Positions 4,613-31,387 of a stretch of 64,000 nucleotides of DNA are shown here, one piece after another (the stretch's first letter is position 1; each line of letters begins with the position of its first letter). Made by a program: the position numbers and the translations under genes. Source of the DNA: SAR86 cluster bacterium (GTDB taxonomy: Bacteria > Pseudomonadota > Gammaproteobacteria > Magnimaribacterales > AG-339-G14). The notes under the pieces were generated by a model. That model saw only the letters and a program-made list of their open reading frames with translations, had not been told where the DNA came from and ran no database searches. The DNA lies in assembly GCA_028135785.1 (NCBI GenBank), contig JAOIHS010000001.1:63194-127193 (forward strand), in the 5' to 3' direction.

Positions 4613-4632
4613 TTTTAAAGCTCCCTAATTAC

Positions 4633-8130: not shown

Positions 8131-9974
8131 TGCATAATTTAAAAAAAATAGAATCAATAAGCGCAGTAAATGATTTTGTTATTAAGTTTGCTAATGTTAA
8201 TGGTTCTGGATCTGCTAGTGCAAATCAAATGTTTGCTAAGGCCATGTTTAGAATGGGTATACCAGTTAGTCCAAAAAATATTTTTCCATCAAATATTCAA
8301 GGTCTTCCTACTTGGTTCGAAGTTAGAGTAAATGAAAATGGGTACTTAGGAAGCAGAGGTGGAGTTGATATAGCTGTTGCAATGAATCCGCAAAGCTACT
8401 CTAAAGATGTAGAAGAAATTTCTCCAGGTGGATTCTTGCTTTATGACTCAACATGGAAAAGAAATTTTAATAGAGACGATATTACAATTATTGAAATTCC
8501 ATTTACTCAATTATGTGTAGATTCTTTTAAAAATCCAAAACAAAGGGCTTTGTTTAAAAATATTGCTTACGTTGGAGCACTCTCAGCTCTTTTAGAAATA
8601 GAATATAAAGTACTAGAGACTTTAATTTCTGAACAATTTGAAAAAAAACCGTCATTAATCGAACCTAATTTAAAAGCTTTAAACCTGGGTAGAGATTATG
8701 TCATTGAAAACTTATCGTTCCCTATTGGAATAACAGTTTCTAGATCAGATAAATTAGAAAATAAGATTTTAATAACAGGAAATGAAGCTGCTGGATTGGG
8801 TGCTGTTTATGGAGGTGCTACTTTTTGTTCTTGGTATCCAATAACGCCTTCCACATCTTTAGCTGAAGGTTTTGAGAAGTATGCTAAAAAATATCGCATA
8901 GAAAAAGAAACAGGAAAAAATCTTTTTGCAAGTGTGCAAGCTGAGGATGAATTGGCTGCAATTGGAATGGCTATTGGGGCAAATTGGAATGGAGCAAGAG
9001 CTTTTACTGCTACAAGCGGTCCTGGAATCTCACTAATGAGTGAATTTCTTGGTCTTGCGTATTTTGCAGAAATTCCTTTGGTTCTTTTCAACGTTCAAAG
9101 AGGAGGTCCTTCGACTGGAATGCCTACCAGAACACAACAGTCAGATATTTTAGCATGCGCCTATGCTTCACATGGTGATACAAAACATATTCTTCTTTTT
9201 CCTTCCGATCCTAAAGAATGTTTCGACTTTGCTGCTAAAGCTTTTGATCTTGCAGATCAACTACAGACTCCAGTATTTGTAGTCAGTGATTTAGATATGG
9301 GAATGAATGATTGGGTGTGTGATAAATTCGAGTGGGATGATAAATACACCTTCAATAAAGGAAAAGTTTTATCAAAAGATGATCTAGATGAAATGGAAAA
9401 TTACGGTAGATATTTAGATGTTGATAATGATGGAATCTGTTATCGCACTTATCCAGGAACACATCCTGAAAAAGGGGCTTTCTTCACCAGAGGAACATCT
9501 CATGATGAATTTGCAAGATATACTGAAGATGGAGATATAAATGCAGCAACTTTAACTCGGTTGATGAAAAAATTTAGAACAGCATCTGAAATAGTTCCAG
9601 AACCAGTTATAGAAATTAATGGAGAAAATAGTTGTGGCGTTATTTTCTATGGAAGTACTTCTCCTGCAATTCAAGAAGCTAAAGATTTACTGAAAGAAAA
9701 AGGAATCAATATCGATCTAATGCAGATTAGATCCTTTCCTTTTAATTTAGATGTTTGGGAGTTCATTGCTAACCATGATCGTATTTATGTTGTTGAACAA
9801 AATAGAGATAGTCAAATGAGAACTCTAATAATGGCTGAAGGAGGAATCTCTCCTGAAATCTTAAGACCATTAGTTCATTTTACTGGCGATCCAATTCAGG
9901 CAAGTTTTATTGTTAATAAAATTTCAGAAAGAGAAGTAAATTATAAATCTCACATAAATGCAAAAAAACGCTAA
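8130..9974 (+). CDS. korA: 2-oxoacid:acceptor oxidoreductase subunit alpha (KorA-like)
   Basis: 614 aa. The N-terminus NGSGSASANQMFAKAMFRMGIPV (gamma-like domain) is fused to the alpha domain (TGNEAAGLGAVYGG...YPITPST). Confidence 0.85.
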   Translation: MHNLKKIESISAVNDFVIKFANVNGSGSASANQMFAKAMFRMGIPVSPKNIFPSNIQGLPTWFEVRVNENGYLGSRGGVDIAVAMNPQSYSKDVEEISPGGFLLYDSTWKRNFNRDDITIIEIPFTQLCVDSFKNPKQRALFKNIAYVGALSALLEIEYKVLETLISEQFEKKPSLIEPNLKALNLGRDYVIENLSFPIGITVSRSDKLENKILITGNEAAGLGAVYGGATFCSWYPITPSTSLAEGFEKYAKKYRIEKETGKNLFASVQAEDELAAIGMAIGANWNGARAFTATSGPGISLMSEFLGLAYFAEIPLVLFNVQRGGPSTGMPTRTQQSDILACAYASHGDTKHILLFPSDPKECFDFAAKAFDLADQLQTPVFVVSDLDMGMNDWVCDKFEWDDKYTFNKGKVLSKDDLDEMENYGRYLDVDNDGICYRTYPGTHPEKGAFFTRGTSHDEFARYTEDGDINAATLTRLMKKFRTASEIVPEPVIEINGENSCGVIFYGSTSPAIQEAKDLLKEKGINIDLMQIRSFPFNLDVWEFIANHDRIYVVEQNRDSQMRTLIMAEGGISPEILRPLVHFTGDPIQASFIVNKISEREVNYKSHINAKKR

Positions 9975-9980
9975 ATATTT

Positions 9981-11033
9981 ATGACTTTTATAAAACCATT
10001 AAATCATCATCCAAAATTAGAAAAAAATAATTTAGGATTAACTAGACGCGATTATGAAGGAGCTGTTTCTTCTTTGTGCGCTGGCTGCGGTCATGATTCA
10101 ATAAGTGCATCTATCATCGAATCATGTTTTAAATTGAATATAGAGTCATACAAAGTTGCAAAGCTTTCAGGAATTGGATGTTCATCAAAGGCGCCGGCAT
10201 ATTTTCTTGATCAATCACATGGTTTTAATTCTGTTCACGGAAGAATGCCTTCAGTAGCTACTGGAGCTAGTTGCGCTAATAGAGATCTTTTGTATTTGGG
10301 TGTATCTGGAGATGGTGATAGTGCTTCAATAGGAATAGGTCAATTTATTCATGCTATAAGAAGACAGGTAAATATGGTTTATATAATTGAAAATAACGGA
10401 ACATATGGCCTCACAAAAGGACAGTTTTCTGCAACAAACGATCTTGACTCAAAAAACAAGTATGGTGACGATAACTTGTTCAAACCTATTGATTTGGCAA
10501 CAATGGCTATTCAATTAGGTGCCACATATGTAGCTAGGAGTTTTTCAGGAGATAGAGAACAACTTATTCCCCTAATCATGGGAGCAATGCAACATAAAGG
10601 TTTTGCTTTGCTAGATATAATCAGTCCTTGTGTAACTTTTAATAATCACGCTTCTTCGACCAAGAGTTATGACTATATTAGAGAGCATAACGAAGCCGTA
10701 GGTAAAACTGATTTTGTTCCTATAGGGGAGGAAATCAAGACCTCTTATGAAGAAGGAACCTCCGTAGAAATAAATCTACATGATGGTTCTAAATTATCAC
10801 TAGAAAAGACCGATAAAAATTTTGATCCATGTGATGCGGGTAAATCTTTAAACTATATTAGAGAAAAGGAAAAAGAAGGAAAAGTACTAACTGGACTACT
10901 ATATGTTGATAGTAAATCAAAAGATTTAATCGAGACTCTCAACATGACGGAAACTCCATTGAGTCAATTACATCAAGACTTAATATGTCCAGGAAGTGAC
11001 GTTCTCAACTTAATAAATAAAGATTTAAGTTAA
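9981..11033 (+). CDS. korB: 2-oxoacid:ferredoxin oxidoreductase subunit beta (KorB-like, TPP-binding)
   Basis: CAGCGHDS Fe-S motif and TPP motif GDGDSASIG...IENNGTYGLTKGQ. Confidence 0.85.
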   Translation: MTFIKPLNHHPKLEKNNLGLTRRDYEGAVSSLCAGCGHDSISASIIESCFKLNIESYKVAKLSGIGCSSKAPAYFLDQSHGFNSVHGRMPSVATGASCANRDLLYLGVSGDGDSASIGIGQFIHAIRRQVNMVYIIENNGTYGLTKGQFSATNDLDSKNKYGDDNLFKPIDLATMAIQLGATYVARSFSGDREQLIPLIMGAMQHKGFALLDIISPCVTFNNHASSTKSYDYIREHNEAVGKTDFVPIGEEIKTSYEEGTSVEINLHDGSKLSLEKTDKNFDPCDAGKSLNYIREKEKEGKVLTGLLYVDSKSKDLIETLNMTETPLSQLHQDLICPGSDVLNLINKDLS

Positions 11034-11741
11034 GTTTATTCCAAGTCTGTGAGCTATTTCTTGATAAGATTCGACAACATCACCAAGTCCAAGTCGGAAC
11101 CTATCTTTGTCTAACTTCTTTTTTGTCTCTTTGTCCCAAACCCTACAGCCGTCTGGTGTAAATTCATCACCTAGATATATTTTTCCATCAGATTTTCCAA
11201 ATTCTAACTTAAAATCAACTAGTATTAAATCAGCCGAATCAAATAAAGTAACTAAAATATCGTTAGTTTTTAAGGTAAGTTCTTTCATCACCTCTATATC
11301 ATCTTCATTAGCCCATCCAAAAGCTGTAATATGACAATCATTAATAAGGGGATCCCCTAAAGAATCGTCTTTATAAAAAAATTCAAAAATGGGAGGTTCC
11401 ATAACCATGGCCTCTTCCAACCCTAATCTTTTACAGATGCTTCCTGCAGCAAAATTTCTAACTACACATTCAATTGGAAACATATCTAAAGACATTACAA
11501 TACTTTCATTGGGAGCGGTTGCTTCAATGTGATGGTTATCTACACCTTTCGATTGTAAGTGGTCCATAATATGACCATTAAATCTATTATTTACAGTTCC
11601 TTTTCCGGCAAGTTGTTCAATCTTTTTACCATCAAATGCTGAGGTATCATCGCGATACTCCATAATCAATTTTGAAGGATCGGAAGTAGTATACAAAGCT
11701 TTTGCTTTTCCAGTCTTTAGAATTTCTATTTTTTCCAGCAT
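11025..11741 (-). CDS. purC: phosphoribosylaminoimidazole-succinocarboxamide synthase
   Basis: 238 aa, with LYTTSDPSKLIMEYRDDTSAFDG...DKDRFR. purC-bamC-dapA synteny is as in E. coli. Confidence 0.92.
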   Translation of the reverse strand: MLEKIEILKTGKAKALYTTSDPSKLIMEYRDDTSAFDGKKIEQLAGKGTVNNRFNGHIMDHLQSKGVDNHHIEATAPNESIVMSLDMFPIECVVRNFAAGSICKRLGLEEAMVMEPPIFEFFYKDDSLGDPLINDCHITAFGWANEDDIEVMKELTLKTNDILVTLFDSADLILVDFKLEFGKSDGKIYLGDEFTPDGCRVWDKETKKKLDKDRFRLGLGDVVESYQEIAHRLGINLT

Positions 11742-17461: not shown

Positions 17462-18166
17462 TCAGTTGTTAATTTTAAGCAATTCTTGTTCAGAAAGGAC
17501 TGCAGCGCCTGATTTAGGGTAATTAAAAATTACTCGATCAAAAAAAGCAATAGCTTGATTCATATTTTCTAACTTTAGAGAAATTAGGCCAAGTTTAAAA
17601 AGAGAAACAGAAACTCTTTCATGATTTGGAAAATTAGAAATTAAAGATTGGTAGGTTTCTGAAGCATCTTCATACATCTCTTGTAAATAGTAAATTTCAC
17701 CTAGCCAAAAGTAAGAATCTGCAACATAAGCTCCCTCAGGATAGGAAAGTATTAATAATCTTAAATTTTCAGAAGCCTCGGAATATCGCGAGTTATCAAT
17801 CAATTTAATAGTGTTAGACCATAAGCTAAATTCTTCTTGGTCCCCGTCTTTTTCAATCAGCTCAGCCAAAGGATTTTCAGAAAATTCTTGTTTTGCTTCC
17901 TCTTCTCTTTCTTCCTCTGAAGAAAGTAAAATAATAGCTTCTAATTCATGAATTCTTTTATCTAAGTCTACATATCTCGCTTGATTAGAATCATCAAGTT
18001 TAGAAATTTCGAAAGAATTAGAATCTATATTATTTGCTAATCTAGATAATTCATTCTCCAGATTTTCCAGCTTCTCTATAATTAAATCTAAAGATTCATT
18101 TTTAGATTGCGCAAAAAAAATATTAGGAATTAATAAAACAACAAATAAGAGAAGTTTTTTTTTCAT
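17462..18166 (-). CDS. cpoB: Tol-Pal system protein CpoB (YbgF), coiled coil + TPR
   Basis: Signal peptide, an N-terminal coiled coil and C-terminal TPR repeats; located immediately after pal. Confidence 0.8.
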   Translation of the reverse strand: MKKKLLLFVVLLIPNIFFAQSKNESLDLIIEKLENLENELSRLANNIDSNSFEISKLDDSNQARYVDLDKRIHELEAIILLSSEEEREEEAKQEFSENPLAELIEKDGDQEEFSLWSNTIKLIDNSRYSEASENLRLLILSYPEGAYVADSYFWLGEIYYLQEMYEDASETYQSLISNFPNHERVSVSLFKLGLISLKLENMNQAIAFFDRVIFNYPKSGAAVLSEQELLKINN

Positions 18167-18170
18167 TTAT

Positions 18171-18635
18171 TTAAAAGAGAGAGATCTCTACTCTTCTATT
18201 TTTTTTCCAAGATGACTCATCTGATCTTAATTTTTCTGGTTTTTCTTCGCCGTAACTTATAACTTTAATTTTAGAAGAAGATACGCCCTTGATGATCAAA
18301 TAATTTTTGACTTCAATCGCTCTTTTTTCTCCTAGAGCTAAATTGTATTCTCTAGTTCCCCTTTCATCGCAATGCCCTTCTAATCTAATAGCTTTGGCAT
18401 TTTTTGCAAAATTAATATATTCAGAAATTAATTCTTTAGAGTCACTTGTTAGGGATGCTTTGTCGAAATTAAAATAAATTTTATCTGATAAGTTAATTTC
18501 TAGTTTTTTTGCCGATACATAAATATCACTTTCGGCAGAAGCGTAATCTAATGAAGTTACTTTATCTGAAACTGTAGTTGTACAACTTGTTATAAAAAAA
18601 GTTACAAGAATAAATACTGCTGATTTTTTTTTCAT
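18171..18635 (-). CDS. pal: peptidoglycan-associated lipoprotein Pal
   Basis: Lipobox ITSC; OmpA-like C-terminal domain (EGHCDERGTREYNLALGEKRA...NRRVEI). Confidence 0.92.
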   Translation of the reverse strand: MKKKSAVFILVTFFITSCTTTVSDKVTSLDYASAESDIYVSAKKLEINLSDKIYFNFDKASLTSDSKELISEYINFAKNAKAIRLEGHCDERGTREYNLALGEKRAIEVKNYLIIKGVSSSKIKVISYGEEKPEKLRSDESSWKKNRRVEISLF

Positions 18636-18700
18636 TTTATGACTCCTAAAAAATGATTATAAATTAAAACTGCTTAATATTATGACAATTGATTTTCTTT

Positions 18701-19969
18701 TTAGTTCACTAAAGGAGACCAGGCAGGCTCTCTTACTGATCCCTCTTGAACTGGCAAAGTGAATTTTGACTTACCATTTATTGTGAGACCAGCTAAAAAA
18801 CCTTGTGTCTTTTTCTTTGTTGCATAGATGATAATATTTCCATTTGGTGAAATAGTAGGAGATTCATCTAAAGATGTTTTTGATATAGAATTTATAAATC
18901 TACTTTTTAAATTTTTTGTAGCAATATGAAAAATACCATTATTACCATGAACCAAAACAATATCTTTACCATTTGGAAAATATCTTGCTCTTGCATTGTA
19001 ATCTCCATCTAAAGTGATTCTTTTAATTCTTCCTGAAGAAATAATCAGCTCGTAAATTTGTGGTGATCCAGATCTGTTTGAGGTGAATAAAAGTTTTTTA
19101 CTGTTTGGCGACCACGCAGGTTCAGTGTCAATTCCATAGTGTCTAGTTAAACGTGATATTTTTTTATTACGAAGATTGTAGAGATAAATATCGGGATTAC
19201 CCGACATGGACATGACAAAAGCTATGTATTTTGAATTAGGAGACCACACAGGAGCACTATTGCTCATTCCTAGTGTATCTATTGAAGATCTATTTCCTGT
19301 AAACAAGTCTTGGATATAAATTTCGGGATAGCCTTTTTCAAATGAGACGTAGGCTAATTTCTTTCGATCTGCAGACCAAGATGGAGACATTAATGGAGAT
19401 GAAGAATTAAATAGTAACTGCTCATCACTTCCATCTATATCGGAAATATAAATTTTATAAGAGTTTTTACTAGGATTCAAAATATAAGCTAGCTTTGTAT
19501 TAAAGACCCCATCTAATCCGGTAATACTTTGATAAGCCCTATTACTTATAATCTTTGATATTTGCTCTAATTCGTTAGGATTCCCAGAAATATCTCCTTT
19601 CAAAATAATTTTTCTTAGCCCAACATCAAAAACTAAATAATTTATATCTAAATTATTTAAATTAGAATTATCTACGTTTCCTATAACAACAAAGTCAACC
19701 TCCAAAAGCTTCCAATCCCTATAATAAAAATTTTCTTCTGAATGAGGATAAGACAACATTTCATTTTTCTTTAATGAATTAAATTCACCAAATAATGTCA
19801 TGTTAGCTTCAATCAAGCTTGAGATGCTTTTACTACCAGATAAAATTTCGTTTCGGAAAGGGACTATTGCTATTTTAGGTAATGTTTCTGAACCCTGAGT
19901 AATTTCTATTTTTAATTTTGATTCTGATAAGGGTGACAGAATTAAAAAAAATAAAAAAAACACTCTCAA
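18701..19969 (-). CDS. tolB: Tol-Pal system beta-propeller protein TolB
   Basis: 422 aa with a signal peptide and repeated S/P-x-W-S-P-D/N-x-K propeller motifs (SPSWSADRKKLAY, APVWSPNSKYIAF, EPAWSPNSKKLLF). Confidence 0.92.
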   Translation of the reverse strand: MRVFFLFFLILSPLSESKLKIEITQGSETLPKIAIVPFRNEILSGSKSISSLIEANMTLFGEFNSLKKNEMLSYPHSEENFYYRDWKLLEVDFVVIGNVDNSNLNNLDINYLVFDVGLRKIILKGDISGNPNELEQISKIISNRAYQSITGLDGVFNTKLAYILNPSKNSYKIYISDIDGSDEQLLFNSSSPLMSPSWSADRKKLAYVSFEKGYPEIYIQDLFTGNRSSIDTLGMSNSAPVWSPNSKYIAFVMSMSGNPDIYLYNLRNKKISRLTRHYGIDTEPAWSPNSKKLLFTSNRSGSPQIYELIISSGRIKRITLDGDYNARARYFPNGKDIVLVHGNNGIFHIATKNLKSRFINSISKTSLDESPTISPNGNIIIYATKKKTQGFLAGLTINGKSKFTLPVQEGSVREPAWSPLVN

Positions 19970-19970
19970 T

Positions 19971-20576
19971 TTAATTACCGATCGATTTAAAAACTAAATT
20001 AAAAGAGCGAAAGTTCTTTTCAAAATAGCTTCTATCCAAATTAATTACTTCTGGAAGGAATGATATATTTGAGATAGCTGCTAGTGCCGAATCATCAAAA
20101 ACCTTGTTTTTACTAGAATTTAATAATGCAAAACTTAGAATTTCTCCGGATGGTGCCAAGTTAATTGTAATTTCTACCTGAATATCTTGATTAATCATTG
20201 AAGGCTTTTTCCAGACTGAATTAATTCTTTTCTGAATTAAATTTATTCTTAATTGAACTTCCATATTCTCCTTCGCTAGATTGAAGTTATTTAATTCTGT
20301 TTTTAAATTTTCTTGAGCAAAGATATCTAATATTGGTTCATCCTTAGTTTTAATAACTTCTATGAGAGATTGGGCGTTTGATTCTAATTTCTTGATAGAT
20401 TTTTTTTGAGGCATTGCGACAATTTCCTTTATCTCCTTGGAAAGTGATATAAATTTAATTGGAATCGAGGAAAAATTTTCTTTAGTATTTTTTAATGAAA
20501 AGTCTAAAGTTAAAAATAAAAAAAGTAAGATATGAATTACTAATGAACTTATAAATCCGATAGAAAAATTAGTCAT
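19971..20576 (-). CDS. tolA: TolA (short form: TM anchor, brief linker, C-terminal TolA/TonB-like domain)
   Basis: Located between tolR and tolB. It has an N-terminal TM segment (FISSLVIHILLFLFL) and a C-terminal domain (SVWKKP...GEILSFALLNSS...FDDSALAAI). Confidence 0.75.
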   Translation of the reverse strand: MTNFSIGFISSLVIHILLFLFLTLDFSLKNTKENFSSIPIKFISLSKEIKEIVAMPQKKSIKKLESNAQSLIEVIKTKDEPILDIFAQENLKTELNNFNLAKENMEVQLRINLIQKRINSVWKKPSMINQDIQVEITINLAPSGEILSFALLNSSKNKVFDDSALAAISNISFLPEVINLDRSYFEKNFRSFNLVFKSIGN

Positions 20577-20994
20577 TATTTTCCGGCTCAGTTATAAAAT
20601 TAATGGATCCAGGTTTTAAGCCTTGCAACTTTGACATTAACTTTGCTACTTCTCCAAATCTAACTTCTTTATCAGCTCTTAAGTAAATCTCTATCGAAGA
20701 GTTATTTGATAGAATTTTTTTTAGTTCTGTCTCTAGTTCGTCTATAGAAAGCCCTTTATTTTTGAAAGATTCAAATTCTAAAAAAAATTTACTGTTTGAA
20801 TTTATTGAAATTGTTAGGTTATCTGAAGCTGCTCTTTCTATAGGTTGTGAATCTACCTCTGGTAAATCTACATCAATTCCTTGAATCATAAACGGAGCTG
20901 TGACCATAAAAATTACAAGAAGAACAAGCATTACATCTACGTATGGGATGACATTTATTTCGGTTAATAATCTTCTTTTCTTTGATGATTGCAT
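20569..20994 (-). CDS. tolR: Tol-Pal system protein TolR (ExbD family)
   Basis: INVIPYVDVMLVLLVIFMVTAP motif; 141 aa. Confidence 0.9.
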   Translation of the reverse strand: MQSSKKRRLLTEINVIPYVDVMLVLLVIFMVTAPFMIQGIDVDLPEVDSQPIERAASDNLTISINSNSKFFLEFESFKNKGLSIDELETELKKILSNNSSIEIYLRADKEVRFGEVAKLMSKLQGLKPGSINFITEPENND

Positions 20995-21000
20995 AGACTT

Positions 21001-21642
21001 TTATTTAGTTTGCCTAGACAGAAGTATTAAAAATTCTTCTGAAAAATTTGAATAATTCTTTAAGATTTTATCAATTCTAGAAATACTCCAGTTATAAGAG
21101 ATTAAAGCAGGAATTGCTGTGAATAATCCTAGTGCGGTTGCTACAAGAGCTTCAGAAATACCCGGAGCTACAACAGTAATAGAAACTTGAGTTAATTGAG
21201 CCAATCCGCCAAAGGCATTCATAATACCCCATACAGTCCCAAAAAGTCCCACATAAGGACTCACTGAAGCAACTGTTGAAAGAAATGCCAATCTTTTTTC
21301 AAGATCGTCTTCATGACGCGAAGTAACTATATTCATGACTTTTTTTACATCAGAAGCAGAGTCACTTTTTTTAAATTCTTCATATCCAACATAAAATATT
21401 TGTTCTAAACCAATTTTTTTTGTTTTTTTTGAAATTTCTAAAAAAAGCTCGTCAATATTTCTTTTTGACCAAAAAAAGTTTTCAAAATTAAAAATATCTT
21501 TTTCAACTCTTGACAAGGTTATCCAGCGATCAAAAATAAACCACCAAGATGTAATGGAAGTAATTATTAAAATAATCATGACCATTTGAACAACAAAGCT
21601 GGCCTCCATAAATAAAGATATTAGATTTAGTTCATATGACAT
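21001..21642 (-). CDS. tolQ: Tol-Pal system protein TolQ (MotA/ExbB family)
   Basis: The start is taken at MSYELNLISLF, where the ATG overlaps the ybgC TAA as TAATG. Contains the SVSPYVGLFGTVWGIMNAF motif. Confidence 0.9.
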   Translation of the reverse strand: MSYELNLISLFMEASFVVQMVMIILIITSITSWWFIFDRWITLSRVEKDIFNFENFFWSKRNIDELFLEISKKTKKIGLEQIFYVGYEEFKKSDSASDVKKVMNIVTSRHEDDLEKRLAFLSTVASVSPYVGLFGTVWGIMNAFGGLAQLTQVSITVVAPGISEALVATALGLFTAIPALISYNWSISRIDKILKNYSNFSEEFLILLSRQTK

Positions 21643-22043
21643 TAATTGATCTCCTGGAGCATTTTTACTTGAAATTGACTTGGCAGTAATTCTGGTTTTT
21701 TTGTTTCTGCATTTATTGACCCACAAAAGATTTCTGCTTCGCACACTTTAAGACCAGATTCATTGTAAATTATTTGTAAAAAATCAAAACTTAATTTTTT
21801 TACCTTAACTAATTTTGTTTCTATTCTAATTGTTTCGTCTAAAAAGGCAGGTAAAAAATAATTTATTTTAAGCTTGCGAACCATAAAAATAAGGCCTGAT
21901 TCTAATAAATCTTTTTGTTGATATCCAAGGGTTCTAAGATATTCTGTTCTCGCTCTTTCTAAAAACTTCAAATAGTTAGCATAGTAAACTACTCCTTGGG
22001 CGTCTGTATCTTCGTAATAAACTCTTGTTTTGAACTCATGCAT
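21642..22043 (-). CDS. ybgC: tol-pal associated acyl-CoA thioesterase YbgC (4HBT hotdog)
   Basis: RVYYEDTDAQGVVYYANYLKFLERAR motif; located upstream of tolQ. Confidence 0.88.
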   Translation of the reverse strand: MHEFKTRVYYEDTDAQGVVYYANYLKFLERARTEYLRTLGYQQKDLLESGLIFMVRKLKINYFLPAFLDETIRIETKLVKVKKLSFDFLQIIYNESGLKVCEAEIFCGSINAETKKPELLPSQFQVKMLQEIN

Positions 22044-22080: not shown

Positions 22081-23517
22081 TCAAGGTCTTCTGATAACTA
22101 AGTTTCTAATTTCGGTCATATCCTCAATAGCAAACTTTACACCTTCTCTACCTATGCCGGAATCTTTTACTCCGCCATAAGGCATATTATCAACTCGATA
22201 ACTAGGAACATCTCCAATAACTACTCCTCCAACTTCCAAGACATCCCAAGCCTTAAACATCTTATAAAGATCTCTAGTGAAGATTCCTGCCTGCAGTCCA
22301 AATTTAGAATTATTTACTTCATTCAAAGCTTTATCGAAATCTTTAAAACTTGATAAAATTGCTACTGGACCAAATGCTTCTTCTTTATAAAGATCTAAAT
22401 TTTCATCTACATTTTCAACAAGAGTTGCTTCCAACATAGACTCCTCTCTATTTCCTCCGCATAAGATATTTGCCCCGTTAGCTTTTGCATTCTGAATCCA
22501 TGATTCAAGCCTCTTGGCTTCTGACTCCGCAATCATTGGGCCAATAAAAGTTGATTCATTCTTTGGATCACCAGAAACAAGATTTTTAGTTCTCTCAATA
22601 AGCATATTTTTAAATTTATCATATATTTCTTCATGAATTATTATCCTTTGAACACCAATACATGACTGGCCAGATTGATAAAATGAACCAAAAATTACTC
22701 TCTCTAAAGCGTCATCAAGATCAGAATCATTATCTATTATTACCGCTGCATTTCCACCAAGCTCTAAAACAACTTTTTTCTTGCCTGCTTTTGCTTTTAA
22801 TTCCCAGCCTACTTCCGGAGAGCCGGTAAATGACAATAATTTAAGCCTATCGTCAGTTGTAAATAGGTCAGAACCGTCCCTGGAAGCCGGAAGGATTGAA
22901 AAAGCACCAATTGGCAGGTTAGTTTCAGACAAGATCTCACCTATAATAATCGCTCCTAAAGGCGTTCTTGAAGCTGGCTTCATTACGAAAGGACACCCTG
23001 CAGCTATAGCAGGAGCTATTTTATGTGCAGCTAAATTTAAGGGAAAGTTAAATGGTGATATAAAAGAACAAGCTCCGATTGGAACTCTTTTCCACATACC
23101 TTGATAACCCTTTGCTCTTGCAGAAATATCTAATGGCTGCACTTCGCCATAAATTCTAGTTGATTCTTCTGCTGCGATTCGAAAAGTATCAATCAATCTT
23201 GAAACTTCTCCTCTGGAATCTTTAATTGGCTTACCTGCTTCAATGCATAGCGCATATGATATTTCTTCAAATCTTTCTTGAAATCTATTTACACAATGCA
23301 TCAAAATTTCTTGCCTCTCGAAGGCTGCTAAATTAGCCATAGGCTCGACTGCTTTGTCTGCAGCATCTATTGCAGCATCAATAATTTTTGTATCAGCTAA
23401 AGCTACATAAGTAGCGACTTCTCCTGTAAATTTATCAAAAACTTTCAAGTCTTCATTAGGTTGTATTGCTTTATTTGCTAGATACAAAGGATACTTATTT
23501 TTTAAAGTCAAACTCAC
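22081..23517 (-). CDS. NAD(P)+-dependent aldehyde dehydrogenase, substrate unknown
   Basis: 478 aa. ALDH motifs: FNFPLNL, LELGGNA (catalytic Glu), GQSCIG (catalytic Cys) and EEAFGPV. Confidence 0.85.
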   Translation of the reverse strand: MSLTLKNKYPLYLANKAIQPNEDLKVFDKFTGEVATYVALADTKIIDAAIDAADKAVEPMANLAAFERQEILMHCVNRFQERFEEISYALCIEAGKPIKDSRGEVSRLIDTFRIAAEESTRIYGEVQPLDISARAKGYQGMWKRVPIGACSFISPFNFPLNLAAHKIAPAIAAGCPFVMKPASRTPLGAIIIGEILSETNLPIGAFSILPASRDGSDLFTTDDRLKLLSFTGSPEVGWELKAKAGKKKVVLELGGNAAVIIDNDSDLDDALERVIFGSFYQSGQSCIGVQRIIIHEEIYDKFKNMLIERTKNLVSGDPKNESTFIGPMIAESEAKRLESWIQNAKANGANILCGGNREESMLEATLVENVDENLDLYKEEAFGPVAILSSFKDFDKALNEVNNSKFGLQAGIFTRDLYKMFKAWDVLEVGGVVIGDVPSYRVDNMPYGGVKDSGIGREGVKFAIEDMTEIRNLVIRRP

Positions 23518-23548: not shown

Positions 23549-25204
23549 TTATAGATTAGAACTTAGAGCTTTGATTTCTTTATTTAAAATTTTATCGTTT
23601 TCACTGTAGTCAGCAGGACAATCTATAACATGGACTCCAGGAGAATCTAGACAGGTTTTAATTATTTTAGAAAGACTTTCTGAGCTTTCAACTCTATAAC
23701 CTCTTGCTCCATAAGCTTCTGCATACTTAACGAAATCCGGATTTTTAAAAGAAAGACCAAAGTCTTCAAATCCCATATTTTCCTGTTTCCATTTAACCAT
23801 CCCATAGCCAGAATCATTGATTATCAAAACAGTTAAGTTTAGATTTAATCTAACAGCAGTTTCTAACTCCTGACTATTCATCATAAAACCTCCGTCACCA
23901 CAAATAGCCATAACTTTTTTTTCAGGAAAGATCATAGAAGAAGCCATTGCCGAAGGAAGCCCTGCTCCCATACTTGCAAGAGCATTGTCTAAAAGCACAG
24001 TATTAGGTATTTTTGCATTGTAATTTCTTGCAAACCATATTTTATATACGCCATTATCTAAAGCAATAATTCCATCTGATGGCATTACTTTTCTTATAAC
24101 TCTCACAAGGTAAGGAGGGAAGATAGGAAATCTTTTGTCATCTCTAATATTTTTTGTATGTTCTACTTCAGCTTTTCTAGCTGAGAGCATTGCTGAAAAA
24201 TCCCAATTTTTGTTAGGCTCTAATGATTGTTTAATTTGCCAAATCGCATTCGCAATATCGCCAATTACTTCAATTTGAGGAAAATAAACTGCATCCACTT
24301 CTGCAGATTTAGTTCCTATATGAATAACTTGAGCACCATTTTCATCCATGAAAAAAGGCGGTTTTTCAATATTGTCATGACCAACTGTAACTATTAGATC
24401 AGCTTCTTTAATAGCTTTATGAACGAAATCTCCTGAGGAAAGAGCAGCACACCCTAAAAAGGATTCATGAGACTCATCTATCACTCCTTTTCCTAATTGA
24501 GTTGTTACAAAAGGTATATCTGTTTTATTTACAAACTCAAGAAGCATCTTACTCGTCATTGTTCTATTAGCACCTGAACCTAATACCAAAATTGGTGAAT
24601 TAGAAGATTTAAGGATATCTACGGCTCTTCTAATCGCTTTTTCATCTGCAATTGGTCTTCGTGCAAGACTAGGGATTAAAGGTTTTTTTTCTGTTGTTTC
24701 TAAAGCTATATCTTCAGGCAATTCTAAATGAACTGCCCCCGGTCTTTCTTCTTGAGCCAACCTAAAAGCCTCTCTAACTCTCGAGGGAATAATATCTGCT
24801 GAAGCAATTTGCTGAGTATATTTAGTTATAGGTTGCATCATATCTACGACATCCAGAACCTGAAACTTTCCTTGTTTTGATTTTTTAATAGGTTTTTGAC
24901 CGGTTATCATTACAACAGGCATTCCGCCTAATTGTGCATAAGCTGCAGAGGTTATTAAATTAGTAGCTCCTGGCCCTAAAGTAGACAAACACACTCCGGC
25001 TTTACCTGTAAGTTTTCCATATGTCGCAGCCATGAATCCAGCTCCTTGTTCATGACGAGTAAGAATAAGTTTTATTTTTTTTGATTTCGATAAACTATGA
25101 AGAAATTCTAAATTTTCCTCTCCCGGCAACCCGAAAATATATTCAACGCCCTCTTCTTCTAGGCAAGAAACTAATAGATCAGATCCTTTGACCGCATTAC
25201 TCAT
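23549..25204 (-). CDS. thiamine-diphosphate enzyme of the acetolactate synthase (AlsS-like) family, substrate unknown
   Basis: 551 aa. N-terminal GLPGEENL...RHEQGAGFMA...GPGATNL and C-terminal TPP motif GDGGFMMNSQELETAVR...IINDSGYG. Confidence 0.8.
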   Translation of the reverse strand: MSNAVKGSDLLVSCLEEEGVEYIFGLPGEENLEFLHSLSKSKKIKLILTRHEQGAGFMAATYGKLTGKAGVCLSTLGPGATNLITSAAYAQLGGMPVVMITGQKPIKKSKQGKFQVLDVVDMMQPITKYTQQIASADIIPSRVREAFRLAQEERPGAVHLELPEDIALETTEKKPLIPSLARRPIADEKAIRRAVDILKSSNSPILVLGSGANRTMTSKMLLEFVNKTDIPFVTTQLGKGVIDESHESFLGCAALSSGDFVHKAIKEADLIVTVGHDNIEKPPFFMDENGAQVIHIGTKSAEVDAVYFPQIEVIGDIANAIWQIKQSLEPNKNWDFSAMLSARKAEVEHTKNIRDDKRFPIFPPYLVRVIRKVMPSDGIIALDNGVYKIWFARNYNAKIPNTVLLDNALASMGAGLPSAMASSMIFPEKKVMAICGDGGFMMNSQELETAVRLNLNLTVLIINDSGYGMVKWKQENMGFEDFGLSFKNPDFVKYAEAYGARGYRVESSESLSKIIKTCLDSPGVHVIDCPADYSENDKILNKEIKALSSNL

Positions 25205-25246: not shown

Positions 25247-25657
25247 TTATTTATCGTTTTTTTTTATTTGTTCTAAATACAATTCTTTTAGCAGGAAGAT
25301 AAAATCTTCCCATAACAGATCAGCCGTAAATGGAGACAAGATATTTAGATCTGGATTAATAGCTCCTAAGGGAACTCTTACTTTAATTGGTCTTCTATCA
25401 AACTTATAAACTAAAGCAGGAATTCCTCTTCCTTCAGAAGCAGTAATAACTTGTTTCCACCAGGCATCCAAAGGCTCTGCGCCAGCTGCATATCGCTTAC
25501 ATTCTAAATACCAACTTCCAATGATGAGATCCGGTAAATGTTTCTCTCTGGTTTGCTCCAGAATTCTTCTTATATTGTTTTTTAAACCTAAATCATTTGT
25601 TAGTAAATTTGCAATTTCTCTTTCAAAAGAGGCTCCTTTATTTCTAGAGTTGGTCAT
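25247..25657 (-). CDS. small PD-(D/E)XK nuclease, Hjc/endonuclease-I-like (candidate Holliday junction resolvase)
   Basis: 136 aa. NKGASFEREIANLL...LPDLIIGSWYLECKRY gives an E12/E14, D43, E52-x-K54 signature. The ATG overlaps the yebC stop as ATGA. Confidence 0.55.
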   Translation of the reverse strand: MTNSRNKGASFEREIANLLTNDLGLKNNIRRILEQTREKHLPDLIIGSWYLECKRYAAGAEPLDAWWKQVITASEGRGIPALVYKFDRRPIKVRVPLGAINPDLNILSPFTADLLWEDFIFLLKELYLEQIKKNDK

Positions 25658-26394
25658 GATTCAATAAAAAATTGATCTGAGAATTCAGCATTAGAATGTA
25701 CATTTTGGACATCGTCTAGATCATCTAGATTCTCTAAAAGTTTAATTACTTTTTCAGATGTTTCTGAATCTAACTTAACATTTTGAGATGCATTCATAAC
25801 AAATTCACTTTCTTCAATTTCAATACTGTGCTCATCTAATTTATTTTTTACCGATGCAAAGCTTTCCGTATCTGTAGTGATAATAGTCCGACCATCATCA
25901 GCTGGTTCTAAATCTTCTCCACCTGCTGAAATTACCAGCTCCAATAATTTATCTTCATCTGAATCTTTAACAATGATTTGTCCAAATTTTTTAAATAAGT
26001 AAGCTACTGAACCATCAGTTCCGAGGCTGCCGCCAGATTTAGAAAAAGCATGTCGAACTTCTGCTACTGTTCTATTCCTATTATCCGTCATTGTTTCAAC
26101 AAGAATGGCTACTCCGTTTGGTCCGTATCCTTCATATAAAACTTCCTCTAAATTTTCTGAATCTGTATCTCCAGCACCCCTTGCAACAGCTCTTTCTATG
26201 GTATCTTTTGGCATATTAGATCTAAAAGCCCTATCTAAAGCCAATCTAAGTCTAGGATTATCTGCTGGATCTGGACCTCCCATTCTAGAAGCCACTGTTA
26301 TCTCTCTAATCAATTTAGAGAAGACTTTTTGACGTTTTTCGTCTTGCCTACCTTTTTGATGTTTTATATTTGCCCATTTAGAATGCCCAGCCAT
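25654..26394 (-). CDS. yebC: YebC/PmpR family DNA-binding regulator / translation factor
   Basis: MAGHSKWANIKHQKGRQDEKR N-terminus; 246 aa. Confidence 0.93.
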   Translation of the reverse strand: MAGHSKWANIKHQKGRQDEKRQKVFSKLIREITVASRMGGPDPADNPRLRLALDRAFRSNMPKDTIERAVARGAGDTDSENLEEVLYEGYGPNGVAILVETMTDNRNRTVAEVRHAFSKSGGSLGTDGSVAYLFKKFGQIIVKDSDEDKLLELVISAGGEDLEPADDGRTIITTDTESFASVKNKLDEHSIEIEESEFVMNASQNVKLDSETSEKVIKLLENLDDLDDVQNVHSNAEFSDQFFIES

Positions 26395-26396
26395 TA

Positions 26397-28163
26397 TTAC
26401 TCCTTGGGTTTCGATGTATTTTTTATAGCCAATTCTTTCAATTCTTGATCAGAAATTGGGCAAGGTGCATCCGTCATTAAACAATATGCTGATTGTGTTT
26501 TTGGAAAAGCAATGACATCCCTTATTGAGTCTTCTTTACAAATCAACATAGCCAGTCTATCCAAGCCGAAAGCAATTCCACCATGAGGTGGGCAGCCATA
26601 ATCAAGAGCCTCTAGGAAGAAACCAAATTTTTCTTCCGCTTCTTTTTCATTTATTCCCAAGATTGAAAGAACTTTTCTTTGTTCCTCAGAATTATGTATA
26701 CGCATTGAGCCGCCGCCAATCTCATAACCATTAATTACTAAATCGTATGCTTCAGCAACTGCTGCAGCAGGATCTTTTTCCAGAATCTCTAATTCATTAG
26801 ACGTTCTCGTAAATGGATGATGACTAGGAGTCAATGAGCCGTCTATAGCCTCATCAAAAACAGGAAAATCTATGATCCAGACAGGCGACCATTCTGATTC
26901 ATTAATCAAATTTAAATCTAGTCCTAATTTTTCTCTTAAAGCGCCCATAGACTCATTCACTATTTTTTTATGCCCAGCTCCAAAAAATACAGTATCACCA
27001 GAAGCTAACTTTAATTGACTAGAAATTTGATTAATTTCATTATCTGATAGAAATTTCAAAATTGGTGACTGAAGTCCTTCTTTTAAATCTTTGGTATCAT
27101 TAACTCTTATGTAAGCGAGACCTTTGGCACCATAATTACCTACAAATTTAGTGTATTCATCAATTTGCTTTCTAGTTAAGGGACTTGAGACTTTAAGAGC
27201 AACCAATCTGGAATTAATATCATTTGCAGGACCACCGAAGACTTTAAATTCAGAATTAATGAACACATCTTTTACATCTATGAGTTCAAGTGGGTTACGC
27301 AAATCCGGTTTATCAGAGCCAAATTTTTTAATTGCTTCTGAATAAGAAAGCGTTGAAAATTTATCTAAATCTACACCTATAGCATTCTTATAAACTGATT
27401 TAATTAACTCCTCAGCAGTATCCATTATTTCCTGAGAAGAAGTGAAAGACATCTCTATATCAACTTGAGTAAACTCTGGTTGTCTGTCTTTTCTTGTGTC
27501 TTCATCTCTAAAACATCTGACTACTTGAAAATATTTTCCAAAACCACTAATCATTAATAACTGTTTAAATAATTGCGGAGATTGAGGCAGAGCATAAAAG
27601 CTACCTTGATTTACTCTACTTGGAATAACAAAATCTCTTGCGCCTTCTGGAGTAGCTTTAGTCATCATAGGAGTTTCAATATCTATGAAATCCTGATTAG
27701 TTAAAAATGATCTTATTTGTGAGTTTATTTTTGATCTAAGACGAATATTTTTTTGCATTTCAGATCTTCTAAGATCTAGATACCTGTATTTAAGTCTAGT
27801 TTCTTCACCTACCTTAATGTGCTCATCCAATTGAAAAGGCATCGGCTTGCTCTTAGATAATATTTCTAGAGAGCTAGAATTAAGTTCAATTTCCCCAGTG
27901 TTCATCTTTTTATTAATCGTGCCTTCTGGTCTAGCTGATATTAATCCTGTTAAAGAAATTACATATTCATTTCTAACAGACTCCGCAATATTAAAAATTT
28001 CTTTGTTTTGGGGCTCAACTACAACTTGAAGAATATTTAGACCCTCTCTTAAATCGATAAATATAACTCCTCCATGATCTCTAATGTTTTCGACCCATCC
28101 AGAAACTAAGATAGTTTGGTTTAAATTATTTTTATCTAATGAGCCTATAAGTGTTCTTTCCAT
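26397..28163 (-). CDS. aspS: aspartate--tRNA ligase
   Basis: 588 aa with an OB-fold N-terminus; FRDEDTRKDRQPEFTQVD and GLDRLAML motifs. Confidence 0.95.
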   Translation of the reverse strand: MERTLIGSLDKNNLNQTILVSGWVENIRDHGGVIFIDLREGLNILQVVVEPQNKEIFNIAESVRNEYVISLTGLISARPEGTINKKMNTGEIELNSSSLEILSKSKPMPFQLDEHIKVGEETRLKYRYLDLRRSEMQKNIRLRSKINSQIRSFLTNQDFIDIETPMMTKATPEGARDFVIPSRVNQGSFYALPQSPQLFKQLLMISGFGKYFQVVRCFRDEDTRKDRQPEFTQVDIEMSFTSSQEIMDTAEELIKSVYKNAIGVDLDKFSTLSYSEAIKKFGSDKPDLRNPLELIDVKDVFINSEFKVFGGPANDINSRLVALKVSSPLTRKQIDEYTKFVGNYGAKGLAYIRVNDTKDLKEGLQSPILKFLSDNEINQISSQLKLASGDTVFFGAGHKKIVNESMGALREKLGLDLNLINESEWSPVWIIDFPVFDEAIDGSLTPSHHPFTRTSNELEILEKDPAAAVAEAYDLVINGYEIGGGSMRIHNSEEQRKVLSILGINEKEAEEKFGFFLEALDYGCPPHGGIAFGLDRLAMLICKEDSIRDVIAFPKTQSAYCLMTDAPCPISDQELKELAIKNTSKPKE

Positions 28164-28489: not shown

Positions 28490-29749
28490 ATGAAAGCCTC
28501 TTTATATCACTATAAAACACTAAGAGAATCGCCAAGTGAAGCAGAATTAGTAAGTCATAAATTGATGATAAGAGCGAATATGATAAAACCTTTAGCATCA
28601 GGAATTTATAGTTGGCTGCCCTTAGGATTTAAGGTTCTAAAAAAAGTAGAAAATATAGTTAGAGAGGAAATGGATTCAAGTGGTTGTCTTGAAATTTTGA
28701 TGCCGATGGTTCAACCTAAAGATCTGTGGGATGAAACAGGAAGATCAAGTGAATATGGACCTGAGTTGCTTGGATTTAAAGACAGAGGAGATAGAGATTT
28801 TTACCTAGGCCCTACTCATGAAGAAGTAATAACTGATATAGGAAGGAAAGAGATTAAAAGTCCAAAAGACTTGCCTATTACCTTTTACCAAATACAAACA
28901 AAATTTAGAGATGAAATTAGACCTAGGTTTGGTGTAATGAGAGCAAGAGAATTTTTAATGAAAGATGCTTATTCATTTGATATTGACGAAAAAGCAATGA
29001 GAGAAAATTATCAACAAATTCGAAGTATTTATGTGAAAATTTTTGATCGATTAGGCTTAGATTACAGAATAGTTAATGCTGATTCCGGCTCCATAGGTGG
29101 CAGTTCATCAGAAGAGTTTCACGTATTAGCAGATTCAGGAGAAGACTTGCTGGCTTTTAGTGATACAAGTGACTTTGCTTGTAACGTAGACCTGATAGAG
29201 GAAAAGGATATAGATAAAATTCCAGGAATGCCCAGTCCTGATGGAAAAGGTTCATTACAAATTAAAAAAGGTATTGAAGTTGGACATATTTTTCAACTTG
29301 GTGATAAATATAGCAAAGCATTAGGTTTGAAAGTGCAGAGCGATAACACAATGAAATTCCTTCAAATGGGATGTTATGGAATCGGAATTTCAAGAATAAT
29401 AGCGGCTTGTATAGAGCAAAATTATGATGATAAAGGCATAATTTTTCCAAAAGAATTAGCACCTTTTGATATTACTATAATATTAATAAATCAAAAAAAT
29501 AATTCATTAATTAATGAAAAGGCTCTTATGTTTTACAAGAGGCTCAAAAAAAGTGGTTTTGACATTCTATTGGATGATAGAGATTGTTCGCCAGGTGTTA
29601 AATTTTCAGATGCAGATCTTGTTGGATGCCCCAATCAAATAGTTATCAGTCAGAAAGCTTTAGATAATGATGCCTTTGAAGTCATTAATAGATCGGATCT
29701 ATCAAAGAAAGAGTTAAGTGAAAGTGACCTATTCGCTTTCTTCTGTTGA
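28490..29749 (+). CDS. proS: proline--tRNA ligase, bacterial type but lacking the INS editing domain
   Basis: Motif 2 is [17 protein letters not shown] and motif 3 is [10 protein letters not shown], with a C-terminal anticodon-binding domain. The protein is only 419 aa, with about 130 aa between motifs 2 and 3. Confidence 0.9.
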
Positions 29750-30820
29750 GTTATCTTCTACTAAATTTTCTTCTACTGGGTTTTCTTTATCTTTAATAGC
29801 TTGATAAATTCTCTTTTCGATCTCTTTCATTATTTTAGGATTTTGTTTTAAAAACTCACCAGAATTAGTTTTTCCTTGTCCTATTTTTTCACCTTCGTAT
29901 GAATACCAGGCTCCTGCTTTTTCAACTATCTTATAATCAGAACCTATATCTAGTAATTCTCCAGTTTTATTTATGCCCTTGCCATATAAAATTTGAAATT
30001 CTGCTTGCCTAAAAGGAGGCGCTACTTTGTTTTTAACAACTTTCACTCTTGTTTCATTTCCAGTAACTTCATCGCCTTCTTTGACTGTTCCTATTCTTCT
30101 TATGTCCAATCTAACTGATGAGTAAAATTTAAGTGCATTTCCACCAGATGTTGTCTCTGGATTTCCAAACATAACTCCAATTTTCATTCTGATTTGATTA
30201 ATAAATATTACAGTTGTATTTGATCTCTTGATATTACCTGTAATTTTTCTTAAGGCTTGTGACATTAATCTTGCTTGAAGGCCTACATGATGATCTCCCA
30301 TCTCTCCTTCAATTTCTGCTCGTGGTGTAAGCGCTGCTACTGAGTCAATAACTAGAACATCGATTCCGCCAGATTTCACCATGATATCGGCTACTTCTAA
30401 TGCTTGTTCTCCATTATCTGGTTGAGATAGCAGTAAGTCATCAACTTTAACTCCTAATTTTTCCGCATATATTGGATCTAGGGCGTGCTCTGCGTCTATA
30501 AATGCTGCAGTTCCACCTTGTTTTTGGCACTCAGCAATAACTTGCAGAGTTAATGTAGTTTTTCCAGATGACTCGGGACCAAATATCTCAACTACTCTTC
30601 CTCTTGGCAATCCCATTACGCCAAGCGCCAAATCTAAACCTAGTGATCCGGTAGATATACTAGGAACATCTTCTACTTTTTTATCGCCCATCCTCATAAT
30701 AGTTCCAGTTCCGAACTGGCTTTCTATCTGAGTTATAGCAGATGCTAAATTCTTATTTCTATCTGAAGATAATTCTTCAGTCTTTGTGTTTTTTGTTTTT
30801 TTTGTATTTCTTATAGTCAT
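29729..30820 (-). CDS. recA: recombinase RecA
   Basis: Walker A motif GPESSGKTT, the [28 protein letters not shown] region and an acidic C-terminal tail. Confidence 0.97.
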
Positions 30821-30828
30821 AATGTTGT

Positions 30829-30848
30829 TACTGTGTATTTATACAGTA
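30829..30848 (-). promoter_or_regulatory. LexA (SOS) box upstream of recA
   Basis: TACTGTGTATTTATACAGTA, i.e. CTGT-N8-ACAG, matches the gammaproteobacterial consensus TACTGTATATATATACAGTA. It lies 9 nt upstream of the recA ATG. Confidence 0.8.
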
Positions 30849-30865
30849 TTTAATACTAAATGATC

Positions 30866-31387
30866 TTAATTTGCAATACTTTTTATAAAATTATTTATTG
30901 CGTTAAAAGCAAAGTAAACGCTCTGTTGTCTTACTTTGTCTCTATCGCCTAAAAATAGTTGAGTAGTAGTGATAATATTTTCCTTATTTCCATAAGCAAA
31001 ACAAACTGTTCCTACTGGTCTTTCCTCTGATCCTCCTCCTGGTCCTGCAATACCACTTATGGCGATAGCATAATCTGATTGACCTAATTGCATTGCGCCT
31101 ATTGCCATTTCTTTTACTACGCTTTCAGATACAGCTCCTTCTTTTAATAAAGTTTCTTTGTTTACGCTCAAGATTTTTACTTTGGCGCTGTTTGAATATG
31201 TTATCAATCCAGTGCCATACCACTTAGAGCTTCCTGGCATTCCAGTAATTTCTTTTCCTAACCAACCTCCAGTACAAGACTCGGCGGTTGAAATGGATTG
31301 GTTTTGACTTGATAAATAATTTCCTACATATTCCAATAAAGAATATAAATCTGTCGAAGTATTAGTCATATATAAATTATAATTCAT
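30866..31387 (-). CDS. pncC: CinA C-terminal domain protein / nicotinamide-nucleotide amidohydrolase PncC
   Basis: [16 protein letters not shown]...[20 protein letters not shown] motifs; located upstream of recA. The start may be the Met at 31369. Confidence 0.85.

Follow-up and report, generated by a model that had tools for sequence, protein, structure and literature searches.

Which enzyme resolves Holliday junctions in SAR86 bacteria, and what is the small nuclease gene that stands directly 3' of yebC, where a gammaproteobacterium such as Stutzerimonas stutzeri carries ruvC? RuvAB, and with them a resolvase of the RuvC or RecU kind, are counted among the near-universal core genes of recombination. 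The question is raised by a 64,000-nt stretch of DNA from a SAR86 cluster bacterium (GenBank assembly GCA_028135785.1, contig JAOIHS010000001.1, positions 63,194 to 127,193 of the forward strand; G+C 32.4%), referred to below as the window. At nt 25247–25657 of its minus strand an open reading frame (ORF) with an ATG start codes for a 136-aa protein of the PD-(D/E)XK type, which matches Pfam PF24608 (PDDEXK_15) and is predicted to be an Hjc-like Holliday junction resolvase. The identical protein, MDA9636157.1, is deposited for SAR86 cluster bacterium with the label "hypothetical protein". We consider it likely that this nuclease came from a phage and displaced RuvABC in situ as a Holliday junction resolvase of Hjc-like type.

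The position of the gene was evaluated by comparison with Stutzerimonas stutzeri A1501, where the order is aspS-yebC-ruvC-ruvA-ruvB-ybgC-tolQ-tolR-tolA-tolB-pal-ybgF and where proS lies on the other strand, a few genes further upstream. The window shows the matching order of divergent proS, aspS, yebC, nuclease gene, ybgC, tolQRAB, pal and ybgF. Upstream, the synteny is anchored by aspS (nt 26397–28163, minus strand) and by yebC (nt 25654–26394, minus strand), a member of the YebC/PmpR family (Pfam TACO1_YebC_N, 7.6e-34; Transcrip_reg, 5.6e-57; NCBIfam equivalog NF001030); downstream, it is anchored by ybgC, coding for a tol-pal-associated thioesterase (nt 21642–22043, minus strand), and by the tolQ-tolR-tolA-tolB-pal-ybgF/cpoB cluster (nt 17462–21744, minus strand). 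Since the flanks are the same in Stutzerimonas and SAR86, a single 411-bp gene fills the whole place of ruvCAB. In about half of the RuvC-containing bacteria yebC lies in one operon with ruvC, and the genomic neighbours of RuvABC that rank next in strength are YbgC and the Tol proteins (Zhang et al., PMC3403352). The preliminary description of the window had proposed the displacement of RuvC by a PD-(D/E)XK nuclease, and the slot, the protein family and the absence of Ruv proteins all agree with it, the displacement extending beyond ruvC to the whole of ruvCAB. It had also reported that ruvC, ruvA and ruvB are lacking from the window, and tblastn searches with E. coli RuvA, RuvB and RuvC indeed gave no significant match in the 64 kb (best E 0.048).

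To the 5' side, the end of yebC reads TTT ATT GAA TCA TGA and the nuclease gene begins ATG ACC AAC TCT. The TGA and the ATG share letters, so that the ATGA at nt 25654–25657 (minus strand) is a true 4-nt stop/start overlap; both the 136-aa ORF and its overlap with the yebC stop, as first described, can be read directly from the sequence. To the 3' side, two genes separate the nuclease gene from ybgC in the window, one for an acetolactate-synthase-like thiamine pyrophosphate (TPP) enzyme (nt 23549–25204, minus strand; Pfam, and NCBIfam NF006187 with 879 bits) and one for an aldehyde dehydrogenase (nt 22081–23517, minus strand).

The generality of this arrangement was assessed by a scan of species-representative genomes, in which 207 carried a relative of the nuclease; the locus statistics given here and below are those of the best 80 of the 207. 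These 80 loci are SAR86 either by record title or by the same SAR86 synteny, and include the closed genome of isolate HIMB1674. In all of them the order Zn-ribbon gene, aspS, yebC, nuclease gene was found, and in 78 the nuclease gene is directly followed by ybgC-tolQ-tolR-tolB. The TPP enzyme gene as next neighbour, correctly noted for the window, recurs in only one other locus among the 80 (L001), which ends inside that gene; it is therefore an insertion and no regular part of the locus. L001, with its TPP portion at nt 10456–11193, is 97% identical. The TPP enzyme and aldehyde dehydrogenase genes seem to have entered the operon recently as a pair and are no part of the nuclease system. The coupling to yebC through ATGA holds for the window, the overlap itself being specific to a subclade; what is universal in the SAR86 loci is the tight linkage, with -8 to +10 nt between the yebC stop and the nuclease start in 80/80. 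No homologue of RuvA, RuvB or RuvC was detected within ±10 kb in any of the 80 loci. One of them (L036, PAWD01000035.1) shows the full aspS-yebC-nuclease-ybgC-tol synteny inside a metagenome-assembled genome labelled "Thaumarchaeota archaeon SAT137", and is probably a mis-binned contig.

The gene is also well preserved. It is intact in every locus, with a length of 135–143 aa and an ATG start, and none of the predicted catalytic or family-invariant residues has been lost (80/80). The median pairwise ratio of nonsynonymous to synonymous substitution rates (dN/dS) was 0.117 for the nuclease gene, 0.088 for yebC, 0.074 for aspS and 0.287 for ybgC, the value of 0.117 indicating that the nuclease gene is under purifying selection. 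Median identity to the window protein across SAR86 was 75% for the nuclease, against 62% for YebC and 61% for AspS; across the order, neither of these two is better conserved than the nuclease. A further representative, with 52% identity, can be regarded as a divergent SAR86-type copy because it lies in the same yebC-X-ybgC-tolQR context on a marine contig of 35% G+C. With all 80 loci syntenic and 207 species genomes positive, the gene appears to be universal in the SAR86 lineage.

Absence of the canonical system from the rest of the genome is documented by published marker data. Ramfelt et al. (PMC11582366) state that, of 28 missing markers, 27 are systematically lacking in 732 environmental SAR86 genomes. 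The part of their Table S1 that covers 47 environmental genomes and HIMB1674 reports the closed HIMB1674 genome as lacking RuvC (PF02075), RuvA_N (PF01330), RuvA_C (PF07499) and RuvB_C (PF05491), and gives the Ruv markers a score of 0 in nearly all of the 47. In the preliminary description, a canonical ruvC elsewhere in the same genome was named as a refuting observation; its presence is contradicted by these entries of Table S1. The same part of the table marks RecN, RadA, MutS domain I and MutL_C as absent and RecF, RecO, RecR and YqgF as present; RecG is not among the CheckM markers in it. Read as a whole, the loss of the MutS, MutL, RecN and RadA markers beside the retention of RecF, RecO, RecR and YqgF suggests a heavily pared-down set of recombination and mismatch-repair functions in SAR86. 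PMC11582366 mentions no substitute for RuvABC, and in our literature search no paper was found that ties SAR86 to a resolvase or describes such a replacement.

The demand for a resolvase persists in these bacteria. An intact recA, coding for 363 aa, lies in the window at nt 29729–30820 (minus strand; Pfam RecA, 5.3e-140), and, since RecA-dependent joint molecules can on this account still be made, the lineage therefore produces them without the standard machinery for processing them. In other words, retention of RecA and RecFOR creates the need for a resolvase. Lack of the Ruv system is rare elsewhere: fewer than 2% of sequenced bacteria are without RuvAB, mostly parasites with small, condensed genomes (PMC3403352), and both RuvC and RecU were missing in only 10 of the 117 genomes surveyed by Rocha et al.

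By its Pfam match the protein falls in a PD-(D/E)XK nuclease family. The match to PF24608, described as a phage putative PDDEXK endonuclease, covers residues 3–97 with 41 bits (gathering cut-off 27; E 2.3e-10), and the same model was matched by all of the 34 diverse homologues that were aligned, with identity down to 28%. The protein also matched PHROG 244 at 2e-13, while no NCBIfam model and no PADLOC defence-system model matched it. At E≤1e-3 the family comprises 861 cluster representatives (50% identity), only 10 of which are found at E≤1e-30, fitting a compact, SAR86-type group of close relatives. In UniRef and IMG, automatic annotation has named a few of the close relatives "Holliday junction resolvase".

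Residues E12, E14, D43, E52 and K54 are in place as first described, and the presumed active site spans nt 25496–25624 (minus strand), where E12 is coded by nt 25622–25624, D43 by 25529–25531, E52 by 25502–25504 and K54 by 25496–25498; the same stretch codes for the invariant R31 and Q35. The spacer, reported as 27 aa, has to be corrected to 21 residues (20–40), lying between NKGASFEREIANLL (6–19) and LPDL (41–44). In the 34-sequence alignment K7, G8, E12, R31, Q35, D43, K54 and P80 are invariant, and R5, E52 (kept in at least 90%), W66, W67 and Q69 nearly so; all thirteen positions are identical in 81/81 SAR86 orthologues. Judging from this conservation, the E/D/ExK motif is no chance pattern. 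The PD-(D/E)XK arrangement that had been read from the single sequence is thus borne out by the Pfam match and by residue conservation in both the SAR86 orthologues and the wider family. The general layout is that of the superfamily, with an alpha-beta core, an acidic residue in helix 1, an Asp where a strand begins and (D/E)xK in the strand that follows.

Several comparisons place the protein near the archaeal resolvases Hjc and Hje. When the profile of the 34-sequence alignment was searched against all PDB sequences, seven of the nine matches were Hjc or Hje, with E values from 0.01 (1GEF) to 1.7, the other two being ribosomal protein L25; Hjc/Hje were therefore the only nucleases among the matches. 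The three best-scoring of these alignments pair KGxxxER, D and ExK with the catalytic motifs of Hjc. With the single sequence as query, phmmer gave no match in the PDB, and Hjc was reached by the family profile only. With hhalign, the alignment to Pyrococcus furiosus Hjc obtained a probability of 91.4% (E 9e-7) and paired E12/D43/E52/K54 with Hjc E9/D33/E46/K48 and R31 with Hjc R25, so that R13 and R31 sit where Hjc has R10 and R25. The latter two are DNA-binding residues of Hjc.

An AlphaFold2 model built on the alignment reached a predicted local distance difference test score (pLDDT) of 90.5 and a predicted template modelling score (pTM) of 0.86, with helices predicted at residues 4–23 and 64–74 and strands at 44–46, 49–56 and 79–86. 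In the Foldseek search of the PDB with this model, the top 17 matches were all Hjc/Hje (among them 2WCW, 2WCZ, 2WIW, 2WIZ, 2WJ0, 1OB8, 1GEF and 2EO0), at probabilities of 0.66–1.00, mostly at least 0.9, and a template modelling (TM) score of at most 0.6. Against the predicted viral structures of BFVD, the best matches were phage proteins with a TM score of 0.83, and several of the lower matches are named Holliday junction resolvase, Hjc or RecU-like. Profile search, hhalign and Foldseek ranks 1–17 thus all point to Hjc/Hje, in line with the likeness to Hjc first suggested, and the best structural matches are neither restriction enzymes nor proteins of a non-nuclease fold. The resemblance to phage T7 endonuclease I suggested alongside it has to be dropped, as this enzyme is absent from the top 50 Foldseek PDB matches, and with it the T7 endonuclease I type as a candidate. 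The nearest characterised relatives are the archaeal Hjc/Hje, and the protein is best placed in a family of its own, which is strictly outside Pfam Hjc but resembles Hjc in fold and active site.

The origin of the gene is indicated by its closer relatives. All the nearer non-SAR86 relatives examined are phage-borne or on phage-like contigs. One adjoins ERF and a YqaJ exonuclease, and another a DUF3799 protein and a VapE primase on a contig classed as viral by IMG/VR; one lies in the replication/recombination module of Roseobacter phage CRP-701, in the context of SSB and a primase; one is located upstream of antiterminator Q in the early region of a Pseudomonas Detrevirus, and one directly before the small terminase gene (terS) of Alteromonas phage R7M. 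Relatives were also found on two short contigs with small, mostly unannotated ORFs, one of which has a gene for a helix-turn-helix repressor-like protein. Phage junction-resolving and debranching enzymes are usually located in recombination/replication modules or before packaging genes. In IMG/VR, 345 contigs carry relatives, with identity of at most 56%. The closest viral relative, with that identity, is on a 43% G+C phage contig (L095, nt 3824–5835; IMG/VR UViG_3300009603_000058), where it is flanked on one side by a 2-oxoglutarate-Fe(II) oxygenase gene and on the other by an overlapping second endonuclease (PHROG 452) and then a holin; the contig carries tail-fibre genes as well. By neighbour joining, the SAR86 sequences group into a single clade whose sister is a phage protein. 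The simplest history suggested by these sequences is probably a single phage capture before the SAR86 order (Magnimaribacterales) diversified, and we infer the direction of transfer, from phage to SAR86, because the phage family is broad.

PHROG 244 and a RefSeq phage record (NC_048878.1 gp15; L087, nt 3992–4447) label the family "RusA-like Holliday junction resolvase". This is a functional nickname that could mislead annotation transfer, since there is no RusA Pfam match; a RusA homologue was in fact rejected as a candidate, the label being the only link and the window protein and the 34 homologues giving no match to Pfam RusA (PF05866). A RecU-type enzyme was rejected as well, with no Pfam RecU match and RecU structures at Foldseek ranks 31 and 41 only (probability 0.20–0.23), and the protein gave no match to Pfam RuvC (PF02075), in addition to the negative tblastn result with E. 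coli RuvC in the window. A defence nuclease was likewise rejected, in view of the missing PADLOC match and the lack of partner genes.

Some observations weigh against a resolvase that took over from RuvABC. The similarity to Hjc is remote (14–21% identity, Foldseek E about 1e-3); Pfam Hjc (PF01870) does not match the window protein at E≤1 and is matched by only one of the 34 homologues, at E 0.0021; and the stretch leading from helix 1 to the catalytic Asp, with the RRILEQTR motif, is unlike Hjc. One of the 34 family members matches the restriction-enzyme domain Mrr_cat at 2e-6, so that the fold neighbourhood takes in nucleases other than resolvases. We know of no assayed member of PF24608, and the term "resolvase" is applied here on the grounds of homology, context and complementarity; the nuclease activity, junction specificity, dimerisation and in vivo role, like the direction of transfer, are accordingly given as predictions. 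Regarding the lost genes, the absence of RuvABC is defined by published CheckM marker hidden Markov models in the 47 genome columns of Table S1, in which 2 of the 47 genomes score 1 for some Ruv markers (PMC11582366). Finally, the loss of RuvABC, MutSL, RecN and RadA could simply mean less recombination, the nuclease then serving another purpose.

The alternative that best survives is of this kind: a domesticated phage PD-(D/E)XK nuclease with another role on DNA, such as flap or fork cleavage in replication restart, repair nicking or a restriction-like activity, its adjacency to yebC being a by-product of the site at which ruvCAB was deleted and the gene inserted. The Mrr_cat match and the remoteness of the Hjc similarity speak for it, as do the often broad, debranching activity of phage junction-cutting enzymes (PMC3864405) and the rewired repair network implied by the further losses of MutSL, RecN and RadA. 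Against this, Hjc/Hje are the sole nucleases in the PDB profile search and occupy the top 17 fold ranks, and the replacement is exactly in situ, with tight yebC coupling in 80/80 genomes; the slot holds no methyltransferase partner, PADLOC gave no match, and retention of RecA and RecFOR leaves a resolvase to be accounted for. We regard another DNA role as unlikely.

A role tied to YebC itself is improbable. The nuclease would in that case work with YebC, for instance on RNA or on stalled translation or transcription complexes, and not on recombination intermediates, which would explain why overlap with or near-abutment to yebC is universal in the loci; moreover, YebC occurs in 98% of bacteria, including some without RuvC, from which other YebC roles were inferred by the authors (PMC3403352). 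On the other hand, given how common the yebC-ruvC pairing is in RuvC-containing bacteria, linkage to yebC is just what is expected of a RuvC substitute. The phage homologues occur without yebC and beside recombination genes, and fold and motifs are those of a DNA junction nuclease. A passive prophage remnant or selfish element without host function, suggested by the phage-borne nature of the nearer relatives, was rejected as hardly conceivable, being effectively refuted by an intact gene at one fixed chromosomal position in 80/80 loci with no other phage genes around it, by strong purifying selection comparable to that on yebC and aspS, and by a median identity exceeding that of YebC and AspS.

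The phage-derived resolvase in the ruvCAB slot, which we favour, can be compared with known systems. Like Hjc/Hje (PF01870; 1GEF, 1OB8, 2WCW, 1HH1), the nuclease has about 120–140 aa, a PD-(D/E)XK core and the E...D...ExK, ER and R positions, and it is predicted to act, as Hjc does, as a stand-alone resolvase in a genome without RuvABC. It differs from Hjc in the family-specific invariant R-x3-Q motif (within RRILEQTR) between helix 1 and the catalytic Asp, in a long C-terminal helix with an LLW(D/E)DFI motif conserved in SAR86, and in its bacterial or phage, and not archaeal, origin. RecU of Firmicutes and Mollicutes (1ZP7, 1RZN) has the same superfamily fold and is the classic case of a lineage-wide RuvC displacement by an unrelated PD-(D/E)XK resolvase (PMC1193525, PMC3403352). 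However, lineages with RecU keep RuvAB, and recU is unlinked to ruvAB or yebC, whereas SAR86 is without RuvAB and has its gene in the ruvC slot.

With RuvC (PF02075), the nuclease shares the position directly 3' of yebC and, by inference, the cellular job. RuvC has an RNase H-like fold; the SAR86 protein, on the contrary, is of the PD-(D/E)XK type, shows no sequence match to RuvC and has no RuvAB partners in the genome. RusA, whose fold also differs from PD-(D/E)XK, is a silent, strain-specific prophage gene that acts as a suppressor in E. coli and can substitute for RuvC. The two are alike as phage-derived junction nucleases serving, or able to serve, the host, but the SAR86 gene is fixed, vertically inherited and apparently the sole resolvase candidate across the order. 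Prophage proteins providing resolution where RuvC and RecU are missing were anticipated by Rocha et al.

On these grounds the following course of events may be proposed. An ancestor of the Magnimaribacterales would have taken up one phage copy of the gene, which came to lie 3' of yebC in place of ruvC-ruvA-ruvB. Its product would be a small, Mg2+-dependent, structure-specific endonuclease of the Hjc-type PD-(D/E)XK fold, with a metal ion predicted to be held by E12, D43 and E52 and with K54 as the putative catalytic lysine. By analogy with Hjc, it would probably bind to four-way junctions as a homodimer and cut them by a pair of nicks. The nuclease would be translated from the transcript of yebC, in the way RuvC is in other bacteria, and would cut the four-way junctions made by RecA and RecFOR, thus allowing the chromosomes to segregate. 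Branch migration might be absent, spontaneous, or driven by another translocase such as RecG. Taken in its full extent, namely that an abundant surface-ocean order dropped RuvABC, MutSL, RecN and RadA and that a single phage-derived Hjc-like nuclease in the ruvCAB slot resolves its recombination intermediates, this scenario is one we lean towards with less assurance than the displacement as such.

Other features of the window were recorded alongside. Promoter-like sites around the operon numbered 22, against a mean of 25.7 in shuffled sequence, and terminator-like sites 8, against 4.2 (standard deviation 2.1); neither was clearly above the shuffle, and neither was used. The recA gene, about 4 kb from the nuclease gene, is adjoined by a CinA-domain gene (nt 29729–31387, minus strand). 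The proline-tRNA ligase (nt 28490–29749, plus strand), of 419 aa, matches the 559-position bacterial model in two pieces and is apparently without the inserted editing domain (PF04073 in L090) of the 571-aa Stutzerimonas ProS; the short enzyme may be another sign of genome streamlining. At nt 6118–11033 (plus strand) the window codes for a ferredoxin/pyridine-nucleotide-disulphide oxidoreductase, a 2-oxoacid:ferredoxin oxidoreductase (POR, POR_N) and a TPP-binding subunit; the 2-oxoacid:ferredoxin oxidoreductase cluster is of an oxygen-sensitive enzyme type, unexpected in a surface-ocean aerobe.

That an unrelated nuclease can stand in for RuvC is a principle already known from the RecU of Firmicutes, the Hjc of Archaea and, in E. 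coli, phage RusA. The SAR86 case departs from these by a distinct, uncharacterised phage-derived family, the loss of the RuvAB motor along with RuvC, and a replacement at the ruvCAB locus itself that preserves the yebC coupling and is fixed across an abundant order of free-living Gammaproteobacteria. SAR86 is free-living and globally abundant, in contrast to the mostly parasitic bacteria without RuvAB, and the only notice taken of its missing Ruv markers concerns the trouble they cause in estimating genome completeness (PMC11582366); the nuclease gene could itself be a lineage-specific marker of SAR86 genome completeness. A likely substitute would explain how a RecA-proficient lineage lives without RuvABC, and it provides PF24608, an uncharacterised and mostly phage-borne family, with a definite candidate function that can be put to the test. 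The interest of the case lies in its clean evolutionary setting, an example from nature in which a core housekeeping operon gave way in situ to a phage gene, and in the ease with which it can be tested; it is also a natural experiment that bears on the frequent coupling of resolvase genes to yebC. If the proposal is true, a proteobacterium would possess an archaeal-style stand-alone resolvase, and the pairing of yebC with a resolvase would be selected for its own sake, whatever the fold of the resolvase.

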